A DNA stretch of 32,000 bases from Candidatus Thorarchaeota archaeon. GTDB lineage: Archaea > Asgardarchaeota > Heimdallarchaeia > Hodarchaeales > Hodarchaeaceae. This document shows, one piece after another, positions 17,090 to 27,137 of the stretch. The stretch lies in the NCBI GenBank assembly GCA_048882505.1, contig JBHLRO010000025.1:1-32000 (forward strand), read 5' to 3'. The notes beneath the pieces were generated by a model. It was not told the DNA's origin and did no database searches. It saw only the letters and a list, made by a program, of their open reading frames with translations. Numbering within the stretch: the first letter of the stretch is position 1; every line of letters begins with the position of its first letter. The position numbers were made by a program, and so were the translations under genes.

Positions 17090-17336
17090 CCCTTAATCAA
17101 TGAGGTGCTAGAATGAGAATTCTTACGTTTTATGTCTCTCCATTTTAAATTGGGCCAATGAAATCCATTATTATTAATTTCCTCTACCAAAAGGAACCCA
17201 AACCGTGACACGAAATCCGCTTAAAGGGCGTTAAAATGTATCTTCATTAAGTAAAGCACCTCAAACTTTAAAAATTAAAGTTATGGCGCTTAACCGTACA
17301 CAATCAGTAAATTCTTTTCTAAAGGTTGGTTGTTTA

Positions 17337-18530
17337 ATGGTTAGCTTTTCTCTTTCCGAGGAACATAAATTATTGCAAGAAAGTGTGAAAGATTTCGTGG
17401 AACGTGAGGTCGTTCCAAAGGTATCCGACTACGATAAACAACAAAAATCGTTATACCCAGAAATCCTCCCCAAAATGGGAGAGCTCGGTCTATTGGGAAT
17501 CTGTATCCCAGAAGCATATGGAGGAGCAGGAATGGATTATTTAGCCCTTGCCTTGGCCTGTGAAGAGCTGGAACGGGTCGATACAGCTTTACGAGTCGTA
17601 ATGTCTGTTCATGTGGCGTTAAACAGCTGTACGCTATACCAATGGGGTACTGAGGACCAAAAGAAAAAATATTTGGTTCCGCAGGCCCAAGGTAAGAAAT
17701 ACGGGATTTATGGCCTTACTGAATCATGTTGTGGATCAGATCCAGCATCCATGCAAACTCATGCTGTAAAGGAAGGAGACGGATATGTTCTTAACGGATC
17801 TAAGAGCTGGATTTCATTGGTAGACGTCGCTGACAACTTCCTGATATTTGCACGTATGGGTCAAGAAAAAGGACACAAAGCCATTGCTGCCTTCATCGTA
17901 GAAAGAGATTTCGGTGGAGTAGAAACGAGAAGTTTTAAGGATAAACTGGGCATACGAACTGGTGACACCGGGGAAATTTTCCTCCAAGATGTCCCCGTCC
18001 CAGCTGAAAATCTCCTTGGTGAGGAGAGTGAAGGTTTTAAGATCGCAATGACCGCTCTGGATAATGGGCGTTTCACTGTGGCTGCAGGTGCCTGTGGAAC
18101 AATCCGTGCCTGCTTAGAGGCCTCCACAGCTTATTGTCACGAACGAAAAGCATTCGGTCAAGAGATAGGTAGGTTCCAATTGATTCAGGAACACATCGCT
18201 GAGATGCAAGCTGGATACGATCAATCTCAACTTTTGGTGTATAAGGCTGCTTGGTTAAAGAATCAAGGAATTCGTAATACTCGTGAAACTGCGATGGCAA
18301 AGTGGCAGGCTACCAACTATGCGTGTGACGCGGCTGACCGTGCGATACAGATCCATGGGGCAAATGGTTATTCAAGTGACTTTTCTGTCGGGCGTTATTG
18401 GCGGAACGCGAGAGCAAATACCATCTTAGAAGGAACCAACGAAGTGCAGAAGTTGATCCAGGGATCTTACGTACTTGGCTATCGTAGAAAGGCCAAATTA
18501 CGTCACGAAATGCCTGCATACCAACCATAA
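17337..18530 (+). CDS. Acyl-CoA dehydrogenase, glutaryl-CoA dehydrogenase (non-decarboxylating)-like (track start 17283)
   Basis: GELGLLG.CIPE.YGG, GLTE..GSD, LNGSKSWIS, KLG, R.AFG..I..FQ, IHGANGY, ILEGTNE (catalytic Glu). The ALRV motif is shared with non-decarboxylating glutaryl-CoA dehydrogenase. Confidence 0.88.
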   Translation: MVSFSLSEEHKLLQESVKDFVEREVVPKVSDYDKQQKSLYPEILPKMGELGLLGICIPEAYGGAGMDYLALALACEELERVDTALRVVMSVHVALNSCTLYQWGTEDQKKKYLVPQAQGKKYGIYGLTESCCGSDPASMQTHAVKEGDGYVLNGSKSWISLVDVADNFLIFARMGQEKGHKAIAAFIVERDFGGVETRSFKDKLGIRTGDTGEIFLQDVPVPAENLLGEESEGFKIAMTALDNGRFTVAAGACGTIRACLEASTAYCHERKAFGQEIGRFQLIQEHIAEMQAGYDQSQLLVYKAAWLKNQGIRNTRETAMAKWQATNYACDAADRAIQIHGANGYSSDFSVGRYWRNARANTILEGTNEVQKLIQGSYVLGYRRKAKLRHEMPAYQP

Positions 18531-18645: not shown

Positions 18646-19605
18646 ATGGCCGAAAGCTCATTGGAGTGGGTATTTCCAGTAATTGCTACCGTGATATGGC
18701 TTCTATTCTTTGGAAGCGTGGTTGAACAATATCTTCGAAAGCGAAAAACCCATCAGCTTGTCTGGGGGATCGCTCTATTGATGGTGGTCGTGGTAATGGG
18801 AGCAGAGGCCTTGAGCTATTTTCTAGGCGAATGGAATCCATGGCTTTATCGAATCTATTATGTTCTAGCAGCTTTTCAGGTAACTATCCTAGGTACTGGA
18901 GTTATCTACTTATTACGCAGTAGAGAATTAATTAATGAGCAGAACACCTTCGGAGGACTTCTCATATTCGGAGGGATCTGGCTAGTATTCGGGATCCCGT
19001 TCACCTTCTTTGTCTCCCCCGTTTTCTTTGTTATAATTCTATTAGCTTTTCTATATATAGGATTGGCTTTGATCTCTTTCTTCACGGAATGGAATACCAG
19101 TGGAACCCAGTTTGCGCATCTCTTCGCGTTGACTAATGTAGTTGTTTTCGGTGTTATGATGGTGAGCGCTTGGAGTTCACCCGTGGACGTGGAAATCCTG
19201 AAATCCCTACTCGGACATCAAATAGGGGGAGCTGGTTGGGAAGAATCAACTATTGTTCGGAGTTTTTCTCCCCTTCTAACAGTACCCGGAGCCTTTGCAC
19301 TTATAGGAGGAGCCCTCTTTTCATATTTTAAGTTGCAACGTTATCTTAAATACAAAACAGGCCATTATAATCCCAAAACTGGAGTTTTCAACCTTTTCTT
19401 GGCGGGCGGATCGCTACTACTAGCAACAAGCGGGGTGTTATTACGATTTGGACTTGCAGGCACGCTACTGCTATATACTGTAAACACCCTAGCAGTAATC
19501 CTGATGTATTTTGGATTTCTTGAGTCAGATAGCATCTCTATGCACAAATTGATAGAGGTGTTAACGTTCCAGTGGCTCCGTAGTTCCGAAACTCAGATTT
19601 CCTGA
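18646..19605 (+). CDS. Uncharacterised polytopic membrane protein (about 8-9 TM)
   Basis: Repeated hydrophobic segments; HQLVWGIAL, W..WLYRIYY, LGTGVIYLL, RSFSPLL. No soluble output domain. Confidence 0.8.
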   Translation: MAESSLEWVFPVIATVIWLLFFGSVVEQYLRKRKTHQLVWGIALLMVVVVMGAEALSYFLGEWNPWLYRIYYVLAAFQVTILGTGVIYLLRSRELINEQNTFGGLLIFGGIWLVFGIPFTFFVSPVFFVIILLAFLYIGLALISFFTEWNTSGTQFAHLFALTNVVVFGVMMVSAWSSPVDVEILKSLLGHQIGGAGWEESTIVRSFSPLLTVPGAFALIGGALFSYFKLQRYLKYKTGHYNPKTGVFNLFLAGGSLLLATSGVLLRFGLAGTLLLYTVNTLAVILMYFGFLESDSISMHKLIEVLTFQWLRSSETQIS

Positions 19606-21119: not shown

Positions 21120-22343
21120 TTACATTCGTAATCCGCCGTCTACTTGAACAACTGATCCAGTCATATAATCTGAGTCTGAGGATGCAAGGAAAACTGCAAT
21201 TTTGGCGACATCATTTGGATATCCAATGCGCATTTGGGGAATCTGAGCGATTGTTTGTTCTTTGTAAACGCTGGGAGTGTTCGCTGTCATGGTTGTTTCA
21301 ATATAGCCCGGCATAATGCAGTTAACATTAACTTTATAACGGGCTAACTCTCGTGCCGCCGTTTTTGATAGAGCAATAATGCCCCATTTAGATGCTGCAT
21401 ACGCAGCCTGTCCGACATTTCCGTATTTAGCGGCGGTGGATGTGAAATTGATAATTTTTCCTCCAAGCGGCCTTTTTGCCATGAAATGAGGTGAGATTGC
21501 TCGGATACAATTGAAAGTGCCCTTTAGATTTATGTCCACAACTGTATTCCACAATTCGTCGGTCATTTTACTGATCAAGGCACTTCGACTGATGCCCGCA
21601 TTATTTACAAGGATATCTATCTGGTTGAAAGTTTCCAAAGCTATCTTGATCAGTCGGGCAACGCTATCCACATCGGATACATCACATTGAACCGGAAGGC
21701 CTTGAGAGCTTAGGTTTTGAATCTCTTCGACCAGGGAATCAAGATCAGACTTAGTTCGTGCAGCGCAAACAACTTTCGCTCCCTCCCGCGCATATTCTAA
21801 TGCAATTTCGCGGCCTATTCCTTTTCCTGCACCAGTGATAATCGCAATTTTGCCATCTAACCGCTGACGCGATTTTACTGAATCCTCATCTTTTTTTTTC
21901 TCTTTTTCTTCCGCTGCAGTTAGTATAATATCGCCACGTAACAGCTTGTAGACTACACGATCGCCTTCGATGACTTCCGCTTCAACTTTCACCTTCTCTC
22001 CAATCTTGAGATTTTCAGAGTTAGAAGCTCCACTCCATGTCACTAGCCTACCCCCTTCTTTTAGTTTAACCACGACGTTCGTATAAGGTGCAAAGCGTTC
22101 AAATCCAGCAGGTGGGACATATACCTCCGAAAAACTCAAAATTTCACCTTCTCCCGACAACTCGATATGTTCCATGAATTCGTTGGTTAGACATTTTGCT
22201 GTACAGTAAGCTCTTGGGGGGTAATAGAGAGTTCCACACTTTTTACACTTGGTTCCTTCCAGCACATTTTGCCGTAACTTACTGATGAATCTATCGCCAA
22301 TCTTTGACTGAGAAACATAGTCACGATATCCAAAGGACTTCAT
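21120..22343 (-). CDS. Fusion: DUF35 Zn-ribbon/OB-fold (thiolase partner) plus FabG-like SDR
   Basis: aa 1-135: CKKC...YYPPRAYCTAKC and OB strands. Charged linker AEEKEKKKDED. aa 161-407: TGAGKGIG, NNAG, GQAAYAASK, VDGG. Confidence 0.9.
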   Translation of the reverse strand: MKSFGYRDYVSQSKIGDRFISKLRQNVLEGTKCKKCGTLYYPPRAYCTAKCLTNEFMEHIELSGEGEILSFSEVYVPPAGFERFAPYTNVVVKLKEGGRLVTWSGASNSENLKIGEKVKVEAEVIEGDRVVYKLLRGDIILTAAEEKEKKKDEDSVKSRQRLDGKIAIITGAGKGIGREIALEYAREGAKVVCAARTKSDLDSLVEEIQNLSSQGLPVQCDVSDVDSVARLIKIALETFNQIDILVNNAGISRSALISKMTDELWNTVVDINLKGTFNCIRAISPHFMAKRPLGGKIINFTSTAAKYGNVGQAAYAASKWGIIALSKTAARELARYKVNVNCIMPGYIETTMTANTPSVYKEQTIAQIPQMRIGYPNDVAKIAVFLASSDSDYMTGSVVQVDGGLRM

Positions 22344-22352
22344 GTCTCATCA

Positions 22353-23504
22353 TCACCGGGAGAAGACGTGAACAACACAGTATTGGCCATGCCCACCAAC
22401 ATTATGTGTTAGGCCGATCTCAGCCCCATCAACTTGGCTTTTTCCGGCCTCACCTCGTAATTGTTTAACCACACCCACCACTTGGGATGCACCTGTTGCG
22501 CCTACAGGATGGCCTTTGGCCTTTAAGCCTCCGTCGACATTTATTGGGATTTTACCCCCGATATAAGTTTCTCCTTCTTCGATGAATCTTCCACCTTCTC
22601 CTCTTTCTGTAAATCCGAGATCCTCATACGCCATAATTTCAGCTATAGTAAAGCAGTCGTGGACGGCTGCAACATCAATTTTTTTAGGCTCCATCTTGGA
22701 TTGGAGATATGCCTGCCGGGACGCTTCCACCGCACTACTTAAATTGCTTAATTCGGGGCGAGTAAGCAAACTAAAAGGAGCAGTGGCTGCTCCAAGTCCT
22801 TCGATCCAGACAGGCGTATCAGAGAGATGTTTTGCTTTCTCTTCATTGACAACTACCAATGCAGCAGCCCCGTCAGCATTGGCGCAACAGTCAAACAGAC
22901 GCAGGGGCGATGCAATCATTCGAGATTCCAGCGCCTTTTCAATAGTAATTTCCTTCTGGAACATCGCCATCTTATTCATAGCTCCATAGTGGTGATTTTT
23001 TACCGCGACAGCCGCCATCTGTTCTGAAGTAGTACCGAATTTAGACATGTGTGCATTTGCGTACATGGCGTAATAGTTGGCAAAAGTAGTACCAAAAGGA
23101 GCCTCCCACTGAACATCACCAGTTCTTCCCATTATTTTAAGAATCTCTGAAGTGGGATTTTCCAGCATTTTCTGAACACCTAGAACCAAAACGATGTCAT
23201 GCATGTTTGCTTTGATGAGAGCATATGCAGACCTTAATGCTGCAGCAGAGCTGCTACAAGCGGCTTCCGTGAGCCATACAGGCTGGGGATTTAATCCTAA
23301 ATACTCAGTAATGGGTCCTGCGATACTTCTTTGGGTCATGTAGACCGGACTTGCTCCTATGATGGTTGCGTCAATGTCTTTTTGCGTAATATTTGCATCC
23401 AAAAGGGCTTCAGCAAAAGGTTCGAAAGCCAACTCTTGAACTGAAACATCATCACGTCGGCCAAACCGACTATTTCCAATTCCAATTATTCCAACTTTGG
23501 TCAA
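22353..23504 (-). CDS. Archaeal-type thiolase (acetyl-CoA C-acyltransferase)
   Basis: EAACSSS (catalytic Cys), DGAAA, VHDCFTIAE, GGLKAKGHPVGATG, HNVGG. Stop is 9 nt from the DUF35 gene. Confidence 0.93.
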   Translation of the reverse strand: MTKVGIIGIGNSRFGRRDDVSVQELAFEPFAEALLDANITQKDIDATIIGASPVYMTQRSIAGPITEYLGLNPQPVWLTEAACSSSAAALRSAYALIKANMHDIVLVLGVQKMLENPTSEILKIMGRTGDVQWEAPFGTTFANYYAMYANAHMSKFGTTSEQMAAVAVKNHHYGAMNKMAMFQKEITIEKALESRMIASPLRLFDCCANADGAAALVVVNEEKAKHLSDTPVWIEGLGAATAPFSLLTRPELSNLSSAVEASRQAYLQSKMEPKKIDVAAVHDCFTIAEIMAYEDLGFTERGEGGRFIEEGETYIGGKIPINVDGGLKAKGHPVGATGASQVVGVVKQLRGEAGKSQVDGAEIGLTHNVGGHGQYCVVHVFSR

Positions 23505-23533: not shown

Positions 23534-24580
23534 TCATTTTTGGCATAGCACAATTGTTCGAACTCCTTCACCTCTTCTCATGACATCAAACGCTTCATTG
23601 ATTTCCGAAAGAGGGTACTTTCCAGTAACAAGTGGTTTAACCACAATTCTTTTATTTTGAACCAATTTAATAATGCGAGGATAGTCAACCGTGCGACATC
23701 CCAATGATCCCATGATTTCCATTTCACGAAACATGACTCTTCCTATATCAAAGCCATCCCATCTTTTATGTGAATACCCTACTGCAACCAATCGTCCTCC
23801 AGTCCTTAAGCTGTTGAAGGCCTGTTTCATGGTCACAGGGTTGCCAATGCACTCAAAAGCAACATCTGCACCTCCACCAGTAATCTTGCGAATTGCTCCA
23901 ACGATTGCACGGTCATCCAGATCGGCCGCTGATAAAATCTCAACTGCCCCAAGTTGTTTTGCGATTTCCAGTTTTTTTGGAATGATGTCCACTGCAATTG
24001 CCAATCCGCCAGCCACCTTAATGTTTTGAACCGTGTTTAGGCCTATTCCCCCACATCCGATGACAACAGCCCAGTCTCCTGGGCGGATCTGTCCACGATT
24101 CTTTACCGCATGATATGGAGTGGAAACAGCATCTGATATGATGCAACCCTCTTCTAATGGGATTTCGCCAGGTAAGGCGAAAATATCTTTGGCTGGGACC
24201 ATAATCTTTTCAGCAAATCCCCCATCCACATTGGAACCAAAAAACGTTTGATTCGTACAAATGTTCTCACGACCAGTCCTACAGTAAAAGCAATTCCCAC
24301 ACGAAATAACCGCAGGAACAAGCACGTGATCTCCTTGTTTAAAAGCGGTGACATCTTCGCTAGTTTCACGAACAATTCCTGACATTTCATGTCCCAAAAC
24401 CAACGGAGGGGATTTACCTGTCGGAACGCCATGATCTAGAAATCCAATATCAGTGTGACAAACCCCACAAGCCGTTATGTCAATGATTGCTTTTCCTGAA
24501 GAGTCACCGAGGTCCGGCGATGGATAGCTTCCATTCAATTTCAAAGGAGCCTTTACCTGTTCAAATATAGCTGCACGCAT
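23534..24580 (-). CDS. had: Zn-dependent dehydrogenase, 6-hydroxycyclohex-1-ene-1-carbonyl-CoA dehydrogenase-like (track start 24601)
   Basis: MDR motifs CGVCHTD, LGHE, CGNCFYC...C, GCGGIG. The GVPTGKSPPLVLGHE, PAVISCG and GSLGC...YP segments match remembered Had/BamQ-type sequences. Confidence 0.72.
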   Translation of the reverse strand: MRAAIFEQVKAPLKLNGSYPSPDLGDSSGKAIIDITACGVCHTDIGFLDHGVPTGKSPPLVLGHEMSGIVRETSEDVTAFKQGDHVLVPAVISCGNCFYCRTGRENICTNQTFFGSNVDGGFAEKIMVPAKDIFALPGEIPLEEGCIISDAVSTPYHAVKNRGQIRPGDWAVVIGCGGIGLNTVQNIKVAGGLAIAVDIIPKKLEIAKQLGAVEILSAADLDDRAIVGAIRKITGGGADVAFECIGNPVTMKQAFNSLRTGGRLVAVGYSHKRWDGFDIGRVMFREMEIMGSLGCRTVDYPRIIKLVQNKRIVVKPLVTGKYPLSEINEAFDVMRRGEGVRTIVLCQK

Positions 24581-24702
24581 CGGAACCACTTGTTGAAACA
24601 AGAAAATCCTGCTGATTTTTAATTGTTCCTGCTAATCTGGTTACATAATAAGTACAGGATTTTACTGAGATGGTTTACTCCCGTTTACTCTTCATGCGGC
24701 GT

Positions 24703-25600: not shown

Positions 25601-26332
25601 ATGTTGTTGGACACGCTGAGCTTCAGAATCGTAAAAGGGGTCGTTTGGACCAAATTTGATGAAGAAATGGGCCCTGTTCCTGTGGCCTGGGTACCTGATA
25701 CCCTTTCTGAAGAAATTTTGTTTAGCGTCTCTCTCCGTGGAATGTCTGTCTTCTCAAGTCGTCCTTCCAACATATCGTATGCAAAAATGATTGCTACACT
25801 TCCTTTTCCAGAATATGAGTTCTTTTCTATCTCTACAGTCCTTTATGAAGTCTCAGAGTCTCTCAGGGGCGGATTTGATATAAATCTGGTGACGGTTTTA
25901 ATCCCCCAACTGATAGTGGAAAATGCATGGCTGGATATACGTCAAATTCAAGGGATTTTTAGGAAGTATTTTGCTCCCTGGGATGGCAGACCAGTTAACG
26001 ATAAAGAAAAAATCATCACAGGGGTTGCTTTGGCCATTGATGACATTTTGTGTCGTAAATTCGAGATGATCGAAGAGGGAGAAAAGGTTAGAGATCAGCT
26101 AAACAATTATCTTGAGTCCTACCTTGTAACCTCCCGTGAAGAAAACGATCAACAGCTTATCAAGACACGAGTAAAAACATTGATTCAATCGTTGGACCGA
26201 GTACTAATAGCGGGGGATCATGAACGAATTCAAGAGGCCCTAGACCAACTGAACTATATCTTGAATGAGGGATTTGAGGATGAACTAATCATTGCTTACC
26301 AGGGTGCCTTTAGCCACTTTTTACAAATATAA
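25601..26332 (+). CDS. uDENN/longin-like domain protein with helical C-terminus (Asgard type)
   Basis: First strand VVWTKFDEEMGP (FD..xGP motif), LPFPE, LRGG followed by a hydrophobic strand, then a predicted helical region. Confidence 0.65.
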   Translation: MLLDTLSFRIVKGVVWTKFDEEMGPVPVAWVPDTLSEEILFSVSLRGMSVFSSRPSNISYAKMIATLPFPEYEFFSISTVLYEVSESLRGGFDINLVTVLIPQLIVENAWLDIRQIQGIFRKYFAPWDGRPVNDKEKIITGVALAIDDILCRKFEMIEEGEKVRDQLNNYLESYLVTSREENDQQLIKTRVKTLIQSLDRVLIAGDHERIQEALDQLNYILNEGFEDELIIAYQGAFSHFLQI

Positions 26333-26366: not shown

Positions 26367-27137
26367 TTAACGATTCTGCCAAACTGGAGATCTTTTTTCA
26401 ACAAAGGCCTGTAACCCCTCATTAGCATCCTTGGTTTCCATTAGCTCATGCAGGTATAAGTGTTCGATCCGACTCAGAATGTGCATGAATTCAACATGAG
26501 TTCCTATTTGGAGCGCTTTCTTCGCATATCGTAAAACGACCGCACTTAAGGACCTAAATCTCTGTAAATAGTTTTCAAAATCCTGATCGAAGGTGGTAGA
26601 GGGAAATACGTGATTTATCAATCCATATTTTAGCGCTTCTTGCGCATTCATTGATTCACCATGCATCACAAGTTCGTAGGCCATTTTCAGTGGTACCAGG
26701 TGCGGTAATAGAACCGTTGCCAGTGGGGGAAAGACACCCACTTTGATTTCTGGCTGTCCGAACTTGGCATTTTCAGAAGCAATCACAAAATCACAAAATA
26801 AGGCAACCTCACACCCCCCTCCCAGAGCTGCCCCCTTAACACTAGCTATCGTGGGACAGGGCAAAGAATAAAATTGTCTGAAGATTTTGTGGAATTCTTC
26901 GAGCATGGTCTTGGCTGTATCTCCCATATGCTCTCCTACATCTACTCCTGCGGAGAATGTCCGCCCTGTGTGTCCAACGACCAGGGCCTTCAACGAATTG
27001 TCCTTGGAAAATTCCTCAATCGCCCGATTGATCTCAACCATCATCGCAATGTTAAGAATGTTAAGTTTTCCACTGTTTAATATGATTTTGCCAACGTTAT
27101 CATTTTTAATTACCTGAATCTGTTCGTAGTTCATCAC
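26367..27137 (-). CDS. dch: Cyclohexa-1,5-dienecarbonyl-CoA hydratase-like enoyl-CoA hydratase
   Basis: LNILNIAMM, FSAGVDVGEH, EFHKIFR, ALGGGCE, FGQPEIKVGVFPP, IEHLYLHELMETKDANEGL..F.EKR.P.W match remembered Dch/BamR sequences. SD GAAGGTGA upstream. Confidence 0.8.
   Translation of the reverse strand: MMNYEQIQVIKNDNVGKIILNSGKLNILNIAMMVEINRAIEEFSKDNSLKALVVGHTGRTFSAGVDVGEHMGDTAKTMLEEFHKIFRQFYSLPCPTIASVKGAALGGGCEVALFCDFVIASENAKFGQPEIKVGVFPPLATVLLPHLVPLKMAYELVMHGESMNAQEALKYGLINHVFPSTTFDQDFENYLQRFRSLSAVVLRYAKKALQIGTHVEFMHILSRIEHLYLHELMETKDANEGLQAFVEKRSPVWQNR

Follow-up and report, generated by a model that had tools for sequence, protein, structure and literature searches.

A conserved DUF35::SDR fusion beside an SCP2-type thiolase in Asgard archaea: a candidate tethered pair for the oxidation and thiolysis of 3-hydroxypimelyl-CoA

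Here, we describe a gene pair in the window, by which we mean the whole 32,000-nucleotide (nt) stretch of DNA that was analyzed, from an Asgard archaeal genome deposited as Candidatus Thorarchaeota archaeon (GenBank assembly GCA_048882505.1, contig JBHLRO010000025.1, positions 1 to 32,000). Two open reading frames (ORFs) lie 9 nt apart on the minus strand, a thiolase at 22353-23504 and an ORF at 21120-22343 in which a DUF35 domain and a short-chain dehydrogenase/reductase (SDR) share one polypeptide; given the tight spacer, this layout suggests that the two genes are co-transcribed. An earlier note, made from the sequence alone, had described a thiolase followed after 9 nt by a single ORF with a zinc ribbon/OB domain, a charged linker and a complete FabG-like SDR, and both the ORFs and their Pfam matches bear this description out. 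The features of the pair are as follows.

22353..23504, minus strand: SCP2/archaeal-type 3-ketoacyl-CoA thiolase (KT), 383 amino acids (aa), TTG start
22344..22352, minus strand: spacer of 9 nt between the thiolase stop codon and the start of the fusion ORF
21120-22343, minus strand: fusion ORF DUF35::SDR, 407 aa, ATG start
21933..22343, minus strand: DUF35 domain (residues 1-137), comprising an N-terminal arm, a Cys4 zinc ribbon and an OB fold
21861..21932, minus strand: charged disordered linker (residues 138-161), holding an in-frame A9 run
21120..21860, minus strand: FabG-like classical SDR domain (residues 162-407 plus stop)

Within the fusion ORF, zf-ChsH2 (PF12172) matches residues 22-51 at 38.5 bits (gathering cut-off, 23.2), OB_ChsH2_C (PF01796) matches residues 61-121 at 53.1 bits (cut-off, 27.1), and adh_short and adh_short_C2 cover residues 165-405 at approximately 210 bits, above their gathering cut-offs. 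Both DUF35/ChsH2-type domains are thus above threshold, and the four ribbon cysteines are present. On the plus strand the A9 run reads T9 (21891-21899); it falls in frame within the linker, where it codes for the lysines of EKEKKKDED. An AARTK motif occupies residues 194-198 of the SDR domain.

A search of 5.8 billion proteins returned approximately 65 clusters in which one chain carries all four of these Pfam domains, at 52 to 89% identity, from which we aligned 64 full-length members. The fused frame is kept in 64 of 64, and these come from many independent assemblies. At the genome level, an uninterrupted match over residues 1-407 (2-407 in one case), with no internal stops, is present in 15 genomes, and the thiolase adjoins the fusion ORF in every relative examined. 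Of the zinc ligands, C33, C36, and C47 never vary across the alignment; C51 is present in 58 of the 64 homologues and replaced by Asp in 6. Measured over reference residues 135-162, a window that takes in some 4 residues from the final OB strand, the linker spans 23 to 28 residues in all 64, and its identity to the reference is 24%, compared to 63% for DUF35 and 76% for the SDR. Because its length is conserved while its sequence drifts, the linker has the look of a selected tether and not of an assembly error. An AF2 model based on the 64 homologues shows two folded domains, with DUF35 folded over residues 13-137, and its pLDDT below 50 at linker residues 138-158 marks these as a predicted flexible tether of approximately 20 disordered residues.

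Homopolymers such as the A9 run are typical sites of indel errors, and the earlier note had cautioned that a frameshift there could be separating the domains. The comparison of homologues finds them in one frame in all 64 relatives, including the closest one at 89% identity, in which the frame is equally unbroken. Together with the constrained length and drifting sequence of the linker and the conservation of the DUF35 zinc ligands and predicted interface residues, this makes it extremely improbable that the fusion is an assembly or frameshift artefact, or a neutral, accidental merger of independent domains whose tethering has no function; a frameshift artefact is excluded to the extent that comparing sequences allows.

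The DUF35-SDR architecture, for which the earlier note had suggested a search, emerges as a conserved fused family and was not found outside that family. An exhaustive representative search gave 10 multi-domain SDR matches without DUF35, their N-terminal parts being a tandem SDR, a biotin/lipoyl domain, an acyltransferase or none. In a DUF35-seeded search among proteins of 223 to 713 aa, which depends on shared words, all 50 matches belonged to the same fused family. Two proteins encoded beside the thiolase that had been considered as stand-alone SDRs (P0073 and P0074) were rejected as such, as DUF35 is encoded in the same stop-to-stop frame and the starts are mis-called. In public records of metagenome-assembled genomes, gene calls at L010:5142-6362 and L011:1568-2800 (G, C, and L numbers are our handles for genomes, contigs, and loci) begin inside the linker and give SDRs of 264 and 255 aa, where the frame holds the whole fusion. 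Public records name members of the family "FabG" or "glucose 1-dehydrogenase," labels that are misleading, and some are cut short by mis-called starts, which bears on annotation.

The thiolase ORF matches Thiolase_C_1 and Thiolase_N in Pfam and reaches 489 bits against NCBIfam NF004720 (cut-off, 420). The nucleophile Cys83, the His282-Asp-Cys284-Phe motif and the Gly-His332-Pro motif are invariant among 50 homologues, so that, with the family model passed and all three catalytic residues in place, it is an SCP2/archaeal-type thiolase. Its top matches in the PDB are 7yvy, 6esq_A (246 bits) and BbsB (7pxp_C), the closest solved thiolases being acetoacetyl-CoA thiolases. It stays below the equivalog model for the acetoacetyl-CoA thiolase of the mevalonate complex (NF053570, 382.6 bits versus 600).

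The SDR domain passes the subfamily model NF009466 (228 bits; cut-off, 222) and falls below two FabG equivalogs, TIGR01830 (266 bits versus 297.75) and NF004198 (276 versus 296), and it should not be filed as FabG despite the names in public records. The motif T170-G-x-G-x-G-I-G177 and the tetrad N272/S302/Y315/K319 are invariant in the 64 fusion sequences, as in classical FabG-like SDRs. The best single-domain PDB match is FabG (4nbu), and BbsD (7pcs) also matches. The Lys within TGAGKGIG and the Arg-Thr that follows strand beta-2 are taken here as the classical NADP(H) signature of SDRs. Lys is found at position 174 in 58 of the 64 homologues and Arg in a further 5; R196 and T197 are each retained in 63, and the hint at NADP(H) that the earlier note had drawn from AARTK is thereby strengthened to a near-invariant trait of the fused family.

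Among solved structures, the DUF35 part is closest to 6esq_E (chain E of 6ESQ/6ET9; E, 4e-16), and 6ESQ supplies relatives of both DUF35 (6esq_E) and the thiolase (6esq_A), which are subunits of one complex. We modeled the thiolase with fusion residues 1-140, using one alignment per chain, three runs and three controls. The model gave an ipSAE of 0.89 in the three runs versus 0.00 for the best control, with a partner pLDDT of at least 88 and at least 99% of contacts agreeing between runs; in calibration, 58 of 80 solved complexes attained this mark, as did 2 of 110 mismatched pairs. The predicted interface on the DUF35 side comprises residues 1-13 (the N-terminal arm), 42, 69-91 and 98-103 (OB strands), and 9 of the 18 invariant DUF35 positions fall within it. 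The model supports, but does not demonstrate, binding of the DUF35 part to the neighboring thiolase, the complex that the earlier note had proposed to predict. As several DUF35-thiolase complexes have been solved, the score speaks for likeness to them.

That an SDR can be the partner of a DUF35 protein follows from biochemical work on Sulfolobus acidocaldarius, in which KT/DUF35 (Saci_1121/1120) forms a stable complex with the FabG-like ketoacyl-CoA reductase Saci_1104, which is NADPH and (R) specific, and the MaoC dehydratase Saci_1085, and in which complex formation renders condensation 60-fold more efficient (bioRxiv 10.1101/2024.07.05.601840). With this precedent, the 6esq_E relative and the modeled docking, the suggestion that DUF35 tethers the SDR to the thiolase gains computational support.

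One indication of a pathway comes from the co-occurrence of the fusion with Oah/BamA. Among 400 species genomes of the Asgard phylum, which as related genomes are not independent, so that counts are given without probabilities, both genes are present in 15, Oah only in 1, the fusion only in 0 and neither in 384, and the sole Oah-only genome (G065) is 70% complete. The fusion is carried by 13 of 21 species of the window's genus and by one genome of another family (G397), as opposed to 0 of approximately 378 others. In G397 the fusion and Oah are both present, on different contigs, making it a second, separate lineage with both genes. An Asgard-wide spread, as the source names Heimdall-, Hod-, Kari-, Thor-, Loki-, Odin-, and Hermod- would imply, is not supported by this genome sample. 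Genomes that the genome collection assigns to one genus carry source names from five Asgard "phyla," making these names unreliable for distribution; the same synteny at 73 to 74% identity is labeled Thor-, Prometh-, and Heimdallarchaeota, and G067 of the window's genus is CP070695.1 (named Heimdallarchaeota archaeon), matching locus L005 in its coordinates.

In relatives, Oah also lies close to the fusion: 83 nt downstream in G057, approximately 1.4 kb downstream in G058, G061, G064, and G072, and approximately 7 kb downstream in L007. In G057, the genes of the operon are, in order, Dch-like, Had-like, KT, DUF35::SDR, Oah (562 bits), and FadA-type thiolase, with a separate classical 3-hydroxyacyl-CoA dehydrogenase (3HCDH) and an AMP-forming CoA ligase beside it. 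The decisive observation for the pathway is that the window's own genome (G000, 94.6% complete) encodes a bona fide Oah/BamA (570 bits versus a cut-off of 464) outside the window on contig C4 (G000:C4:15288-17606; L013:7277-9606), followed by a FadA-type thiolase and an AlkZ-like gene. As Oah and the FadA-type thiolase adjoin the fusion downstream in relatives, the same cluster is split here between contigs C25, which holds the window, and C4. Of the marks of a benzoyl-CoA lower pathway, a bona fide Oah in the genome and, in relatives, its linkage to the fusion pair are both present.

Unfused counterparts of the pair show the same association. Among 251 genomes of the class Thermoplasmata, orthologues of the thiolase (64 to 70% identity) are found in 20 and Oah in 8; all eight Oah genomes have the orthologue, and in four of them it lies 0.5 to 2.3 kb from Oah. 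The operon of one such genome, G449, consists of Oah, an amidohydrolase, a FabG-like SDR, KT, and DUF35, adjoined by a divergent Had-like/Dch-like pair, and a FadB-like fusion and a FadA-like thiolase are present separately. The gene between Oah and the SDR (L019:10253-11086) belongs to the Amidohydro_2 family, with no role assigned to it in the textbook pathway. A scan of named-species genomes gave 80 loci with related thiolases (45 to 68% identity), in 74 of which the next gene after the thiolase is DUF35. In 17 of the 80 loci, Oah is no more than 8 kb away; these come from Thermoplasmata, Desulfobacterales, and other Desulfobacterota. An SDR directly precedes the thiolase in 14 of these 17, and the full SDR-thiolase-DUF35 order is kept in 13. 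An SDR lies upstream of the thiolase in 16 of the 63 loci without Oah. Judged by these recurrent unfused, Oah-linked operons, the Asgard protein therefore appears to represent, in fused form, a widespread unit of three genes that accompanies Oah. In Thermodesulfobacteriota and deltaproteobacterial metagenome-assembled genomes, separate thiolase, DUF35, and SDR genes occur in that order (L043:1341-3862 and L048:8001-10566) with intergenic gaps of approximately 130 and 260 nt, a plausible precursor arrangement of the fusion.

The product of Oah is 3-hydroxypimelyl-CoA, and the textbook next steps are its oxidation to 3-oxopimelyl-CoA and thiolysis to glutaryl-CoA and acetyl-CoA. NADP+-linked oxidation of a 3-hydroxyacyl-CoA is thermodynamically unfavorable. 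We propose, with a probability of roughly 0.6, that the pair is a hard-wired DUF35::SDR/thiolase complex that acts on 3-hydroxypimelyl-CoA just after Oah. In this scheme, the DUF35 domain would dock onto the neighboring SCP2-type thiolase, as free DUF35 proteins do, and the disordered tether would hold the FabG-like NADP(H)-type SDR beside it, so that the unstable and thermodynamically awkward 3-oxoacyl-CoA could be handed directly from one active site to the other. Acting after Oah/BamA in the lower pathway of anaerobic benzoyl-CoA (or alicyclic acid) degradation, the SDR would convert 3-hydroxypimelyl-CoA to 3-oxopimelyl-CoA, and the thiolase would cleave the latter to glutaryl-CoA and acetyl-CoA. 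The rationale for tethering would be that direct hand-over to the exergonic thiolysis pulls the unfavorable NADP+ oxidation. Accepting this, the SDR is a proposed NADP(H)-linked 3-hydroxypimelyl-CoA dehydrogenase/3-oxoacyl-CoA reductase, and the thiolase a proposed 3-oxopimelyl-CoA thiolase and docking partner of DUF35. We infer that the pair serves the C7 step because, in the recurrent operons, the SDR is the sole hydroxyacyl-CoA dehydrogenase co-transcribed with Oah and a separate 3HCDH/FadA set is available for C4. The earlier note had already put forward the route from 3-hydroxypimelyl-CoA to glutaryl-CoA, and the co-occurrence with Oah, the shared operon in relatives and the unfused Oah-SDR-KT-DUF35 operons favor it on computational grounds.

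Further genes in the window fit into the same context.

23534..24601, minus strand: zinc-dependent medium-chain dehydrogenase/reductase (MDR), Had-like, 29 nt upstream of the thiolase
26367..27137, minus strand: crotonase-type enoyl-CoA hydratase (ECH), Dch-like, with TIGR03189 (dienoyl_CoA_hyt) as best match
17283..18530, plus strand: acyl-CoA dehydrogenase (ACAD), candidate oxidizer of the glutaryl-CoA product, with NF045552 as best match

The MDR-KT-fusion synteny recurs in L005, L006, L009, L014, and L015. The Dch-like gene lies directly upstream of the MDR in L005, L014, and L015, and in L006 a gene for a 219-aa protein of the metallo-beta-lactamase fold stands between them. In L014, a homologous ACAD gene separates the fusion from Oah. 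Flanking the cluster in L005, L006, L007, and L015 are genes for a conserved 510-aa CCG-domain Fe-S oxidoreductase, an ACAD, EtfB, and a ferredoxin-domain EtfA, a set that resembles the electron-transfer set of syntrophic beta-oxidizers. Two ORFs among the acyl-CoA genes of the window, at 18646-19605 (plus strand, 319 aa) and 25601-26332 (plus strand, 243 aa), have no Pfam or NCBIfam match.

Several observations weigh against the proposed complex and its role after Oah. Each Oah cluster has two thiolases and two 3-hydroxyacyl-CoA dehydrogenases, and the choice of the C7 over the C4 step comes from operon position only. The pair does not adjoin Oah in G397 or in the Kariarchaeaceae locus L008, and no Oah was seen in 12 of the 20 Thermoplasmata genomes with the thiolase orthologue, the completeness of which is unknown. 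The fused SDR is only 36 to 45% identical to those of Thermoplasmata, a distance similar to that from bacterial FabG, so the two SDR parts need not be orthologous. Catabolic dehydrogenases do not usually carry an NADP(H)-type motif, and the EC entry for 3-hydroxypimeloyl-CoA dehydrogenase (EC 1.1.1.259) names NAD+; we know of no sequence-defined family for this activity. The docking model may reflect memory of solved DUF35-thiolase complexes. The proposed neighbors in the pathway also score below their family models: the Had-like MDR reaches 223 bits against its best NCBIfam match, TIGR03201 (dearomat_had; cut-off, 338), and in the PDB matches Had (7quy, 173 bits) about as well as an ordinary alcohol dehydrogenase (1rjw, 176 bits); the Dch-like hydratase reaches 186 bits against TIGR03189 (cut-off, 292); and the ACAD reaches 356 bits against NF045552, the nondecarboxylating glutaryl-CoA dehydrogenase Acd (cut-off, 470). 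No Dch, Had or dearomatizing reductase was found above the family cut-offs. A BcrC-like gene (246 bits versus 421; L012:8093-9769, G000:C25:40093-41769) lies beyond the window on the same contig and matches BcrC better than HadC or a double-cubane reductase, and BcrA-like ATPases are represented by weak matches only (136 bits versus 578; C1:146344-146940 and C4:6246-6686). The upstream route to the Oah substrate is thus uncertain, and a class I benzoyl-CoA reductase is not established. Beside the BcrC-like gene, the start of a BcrB-like gene is visible at the end of contig C25.

An unlikely but tangible alternative is that the same complex serves the last (C4) round, or general short-chain beta-oxidation, converting 3-hydroxybutyryl-CoA to acetoacetyl-CoA and on to two acetyl-CoA, and that 3-oxopimelyl-CoA is taken by the FadA-type thiolase; a role with acetoacetyl-CoA had also been named in the earlier note. 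That thiolase directly follows Oah in the window's own genome, in G057, and in G058, and both the acetoacetyl-CoA thiolases closest to ours among solved structures and the 12 Thermoplasmata genomes with the thiolase in which no Oah was seen point the same way. In addition, a Thermoplasmata module, ECH-SDR-KT-DUF35 (L017), fits a path from crotonyl-CoA to acetyl-CoA, and its ECH is 46% identical to the Dch-like ECH of the window. However, the G057 and G449 clusters already hold a classical NAD-type 3HCDH or a FadB-like fusion together with a FadA-type thiolase, and in the recurrent Oah-SDR-KT-DUF35 operons no hydroxyacyl-CoA dehydrogenase other than the SDR is co-transcribed with Oah. Crotonases yield the (S)-alcohol, and FabG-like SDRs usually handle the (R)-alcohol, which also speaks against a C4 role.

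The architecture would also suit the opposite direction, as it would equally favor NADPH reduction pulling a Claisen condensation. If the NADPH-type reductase drove glutaryl-CoA and acetyl-CoA to 3-oxopimelyl-CoA and on to 3-hydroxypimelyl-CoA, then Oah, Had, and Dch could build a six-membered ring, with cyclohexane carboxylate or benzoate as an electron sink. Syntrophus aciditrophicus runs such ring formation reversibly. We regard this as rather improbable for the Asgard pair; if true, it would mean a fermentation that builds a ring, in archaea closely related to eukaryotes, and DUF35 would be used as in both characterized complexes, to pull an uphill Claisen condensation. The pair could also run in the anabolic direction as an acyl carrier protein-independent condensation-reduction complex of the Sulfolobus "archaeal fatty acid synthase" type, leading to fatty acids or polyhydroxyalkanoate (PHA). 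This reading was initially favored after the Sulfolobus preprint and was demoted once Oah and the phyletic pattern had been found; we now consider it distinctly improbable. Its appeal lies in the NADP(H)-type motif throughout the fused family, in the binding of an NADPH-specific SDR by the S. acidocaldarius KT/DUF35 in a complex that strongly favors condensation, and in the MDR gene directly upstream, the Sulfolobus enoyl-CoA reductase being an MDR. A Sulfolobus-type synthase is nonetheless only partly recognizable here, as KT/DUF35 and the NADP-type SDR motif are present, but the two MaoC genes of the genome lie on other contigs, unlinked to the pair, and the adjacent MDR looks like a zinc-dependent alcohol dehydrogenase or Had rather than an enoyl reductase: its zinc ligands, both catalytic and structural, are complete, it carries an NAD-type "AVDI" motif, and it comes closest to Had. 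Moreover, in the Asgard sample the fusion occurs only where Oah does, which a housekeeping role in lipid synthesis would not predict, and the neighbors (ACAD, electron transfer flavoprotein, CCG Fe-S oxidoreductase, and CoA ligase) are catabolic. Polyhydroxybutyrate synthesis was rejected, as a PHA synthase (searched for as class III) was not found in the 94.6% complete genome.

Read as a complex acting after Oah, the fused pair is a variant of known DUF35-scaffolded thiolase complexes and not a new principle. In function, its nearest precedent is the Sulfolobus KT/DUF35/SDR complex; in architecture, it is ChsH2/Shy; and in pathway logic, it is BbsCD followed by BbsAB. Compared by description, the pair shares with the Sulfolobus complex an SCP2-type thiolase with a downstream DUF35, a FabG-like NADPH-type SDR and the proposed coupling of thiolase to redox chemistry. 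The Sulfolobus proteins are separate polypeptides in the anabolic context of fatty acid synthesis, where a MaoC dehydratase and an MDR enoyl reductase take part, whereas here DUF35 and the SDR form one chain, the genomic context is Oah-dependent and catabolic, and MaoC is unlinked. No solved structure is closer to the DUF35 part than the thiolase/3-hydroxy-3-methylglutaryl-CoA (HMG-CoA) synthase/DUF35 complex of Methanothermococcus thermolithotrophicus (6ESQ, 6ET9), which is also among the best matches of the thiolase. There, DUF35 is a scaffold that lets the thiolase product be used at once, which is the likeness proposed here; its partner is an unfused HMG-CoA synthase instead of a fused SDR.

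In steroid degradation, the DUF35 domain of ChsH2/Shy docks onto a thiolase-fold aldolase (PMC11321319). These systems (ChsH1-ChsH2(DUF35)-Ltp2 and Shy-Sal; 6OK1; PMC11321319) likewise fuse DUF35 to the enzyme of the preceding step in a catabolic context. However, they place a MaoC hydratase N-terminal to DUF35, where our protein has an SDR C-terminal to it, and their partner is a thiolase-like aldolase without thiolase chemistry, where our thiolase keeps Cys83, Cys284, and His332. In the Bbs pathway of anaerobic toluene degradation (7PXP, 7PCS), an SDR step (BbsCD) is followed, as proposed here, by the SCP2-type thiolase BbsAB, which depends on the DUF35 protein BbsA, and BbsB, BbsA, and BbsD are all among the PDB matches of the window pair; the Bbs proteins are separate polypeptides acting on another substrate. 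To our knowledge, no tethering of BbsCD to BbsAB has been reported. Finally, the unfused Oah-SDR-thiolase-DUF35 operons of Thermoplasmata and Desulfobacterota share with the fused pair the three families, the Oah link and the proposed step, and differ in having separate genes with the SDR upstream of the thiolase.

The step itself has remained poorly defined. GapMind lists 3-hydroxypimeloyl-CoA dehydrogenase as unknown (PMC9007349), AabC and AabD are genetic candidates for the proposed step in Aromatoleum (PMC9795900), and Geobacter has a benzoate-induced ECH/thiolase/SDR trio, Gmet_2057-2059 (PMC1924859), in which we observe no adjacent DUF35 gene. For some Asgard archaea a benzoyl-CoA pathway has been predicted, with a generic "Hadh/Fad" for this step (PMC8163825). 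In the literature searched, we found no paper combining bamA, DUF35, and benzoyl-CoA, none of the papers found on DUF35 and Asgard archaea describes a DUF35::SDR fusion, and no mention of one was found in the Sulfolobus preprint (bioRxiv 10.1101/2024.07.05.601840). The Oah link yields concrete candidates for both the 3-hydroxypimelyl-CoA dehydrogenase and the 3-oxopimelyl-CoA thiolase, and it shows an SDR-thiolase-DUF35 trio alongside bamA in many uncultured anaerobes among both Bacteria and Archaea. The sole prior evidence for an SDR as partner of DUF35 is one recent Sulfolobus preprint, to which the conserved fusion adds independent "Rosetta-stone" support. As a system of two polypeptides with a built-in tether that could be lengthened or shortened, the fusion also offers a simpler case in which to study channeling.

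A mevalonate role of the window pair was rejected, as the best HMG-CoA synthase candidate of the genome (C1:313565-314545, within a 571-aa open frame) lies on another contig and adjoins none of the thiolase/DUF35 pairs. The HMG-CoA synthase model PF08540 gave no match in this genome, and it also fails on several archaeal control genomes. Two further thiolase/DUF35 pairs are present, at L002:4966-6512 on contig C1 and at L001:3958-5896 on contig C5. The DUF35 partner of the C1 pair (P0269) has 117 aa and a CxxC...CxxC ribbon without a Pfam match, and that of the C5 pair has 222 aa, including an N-terminal extension of approximately 70 residues.

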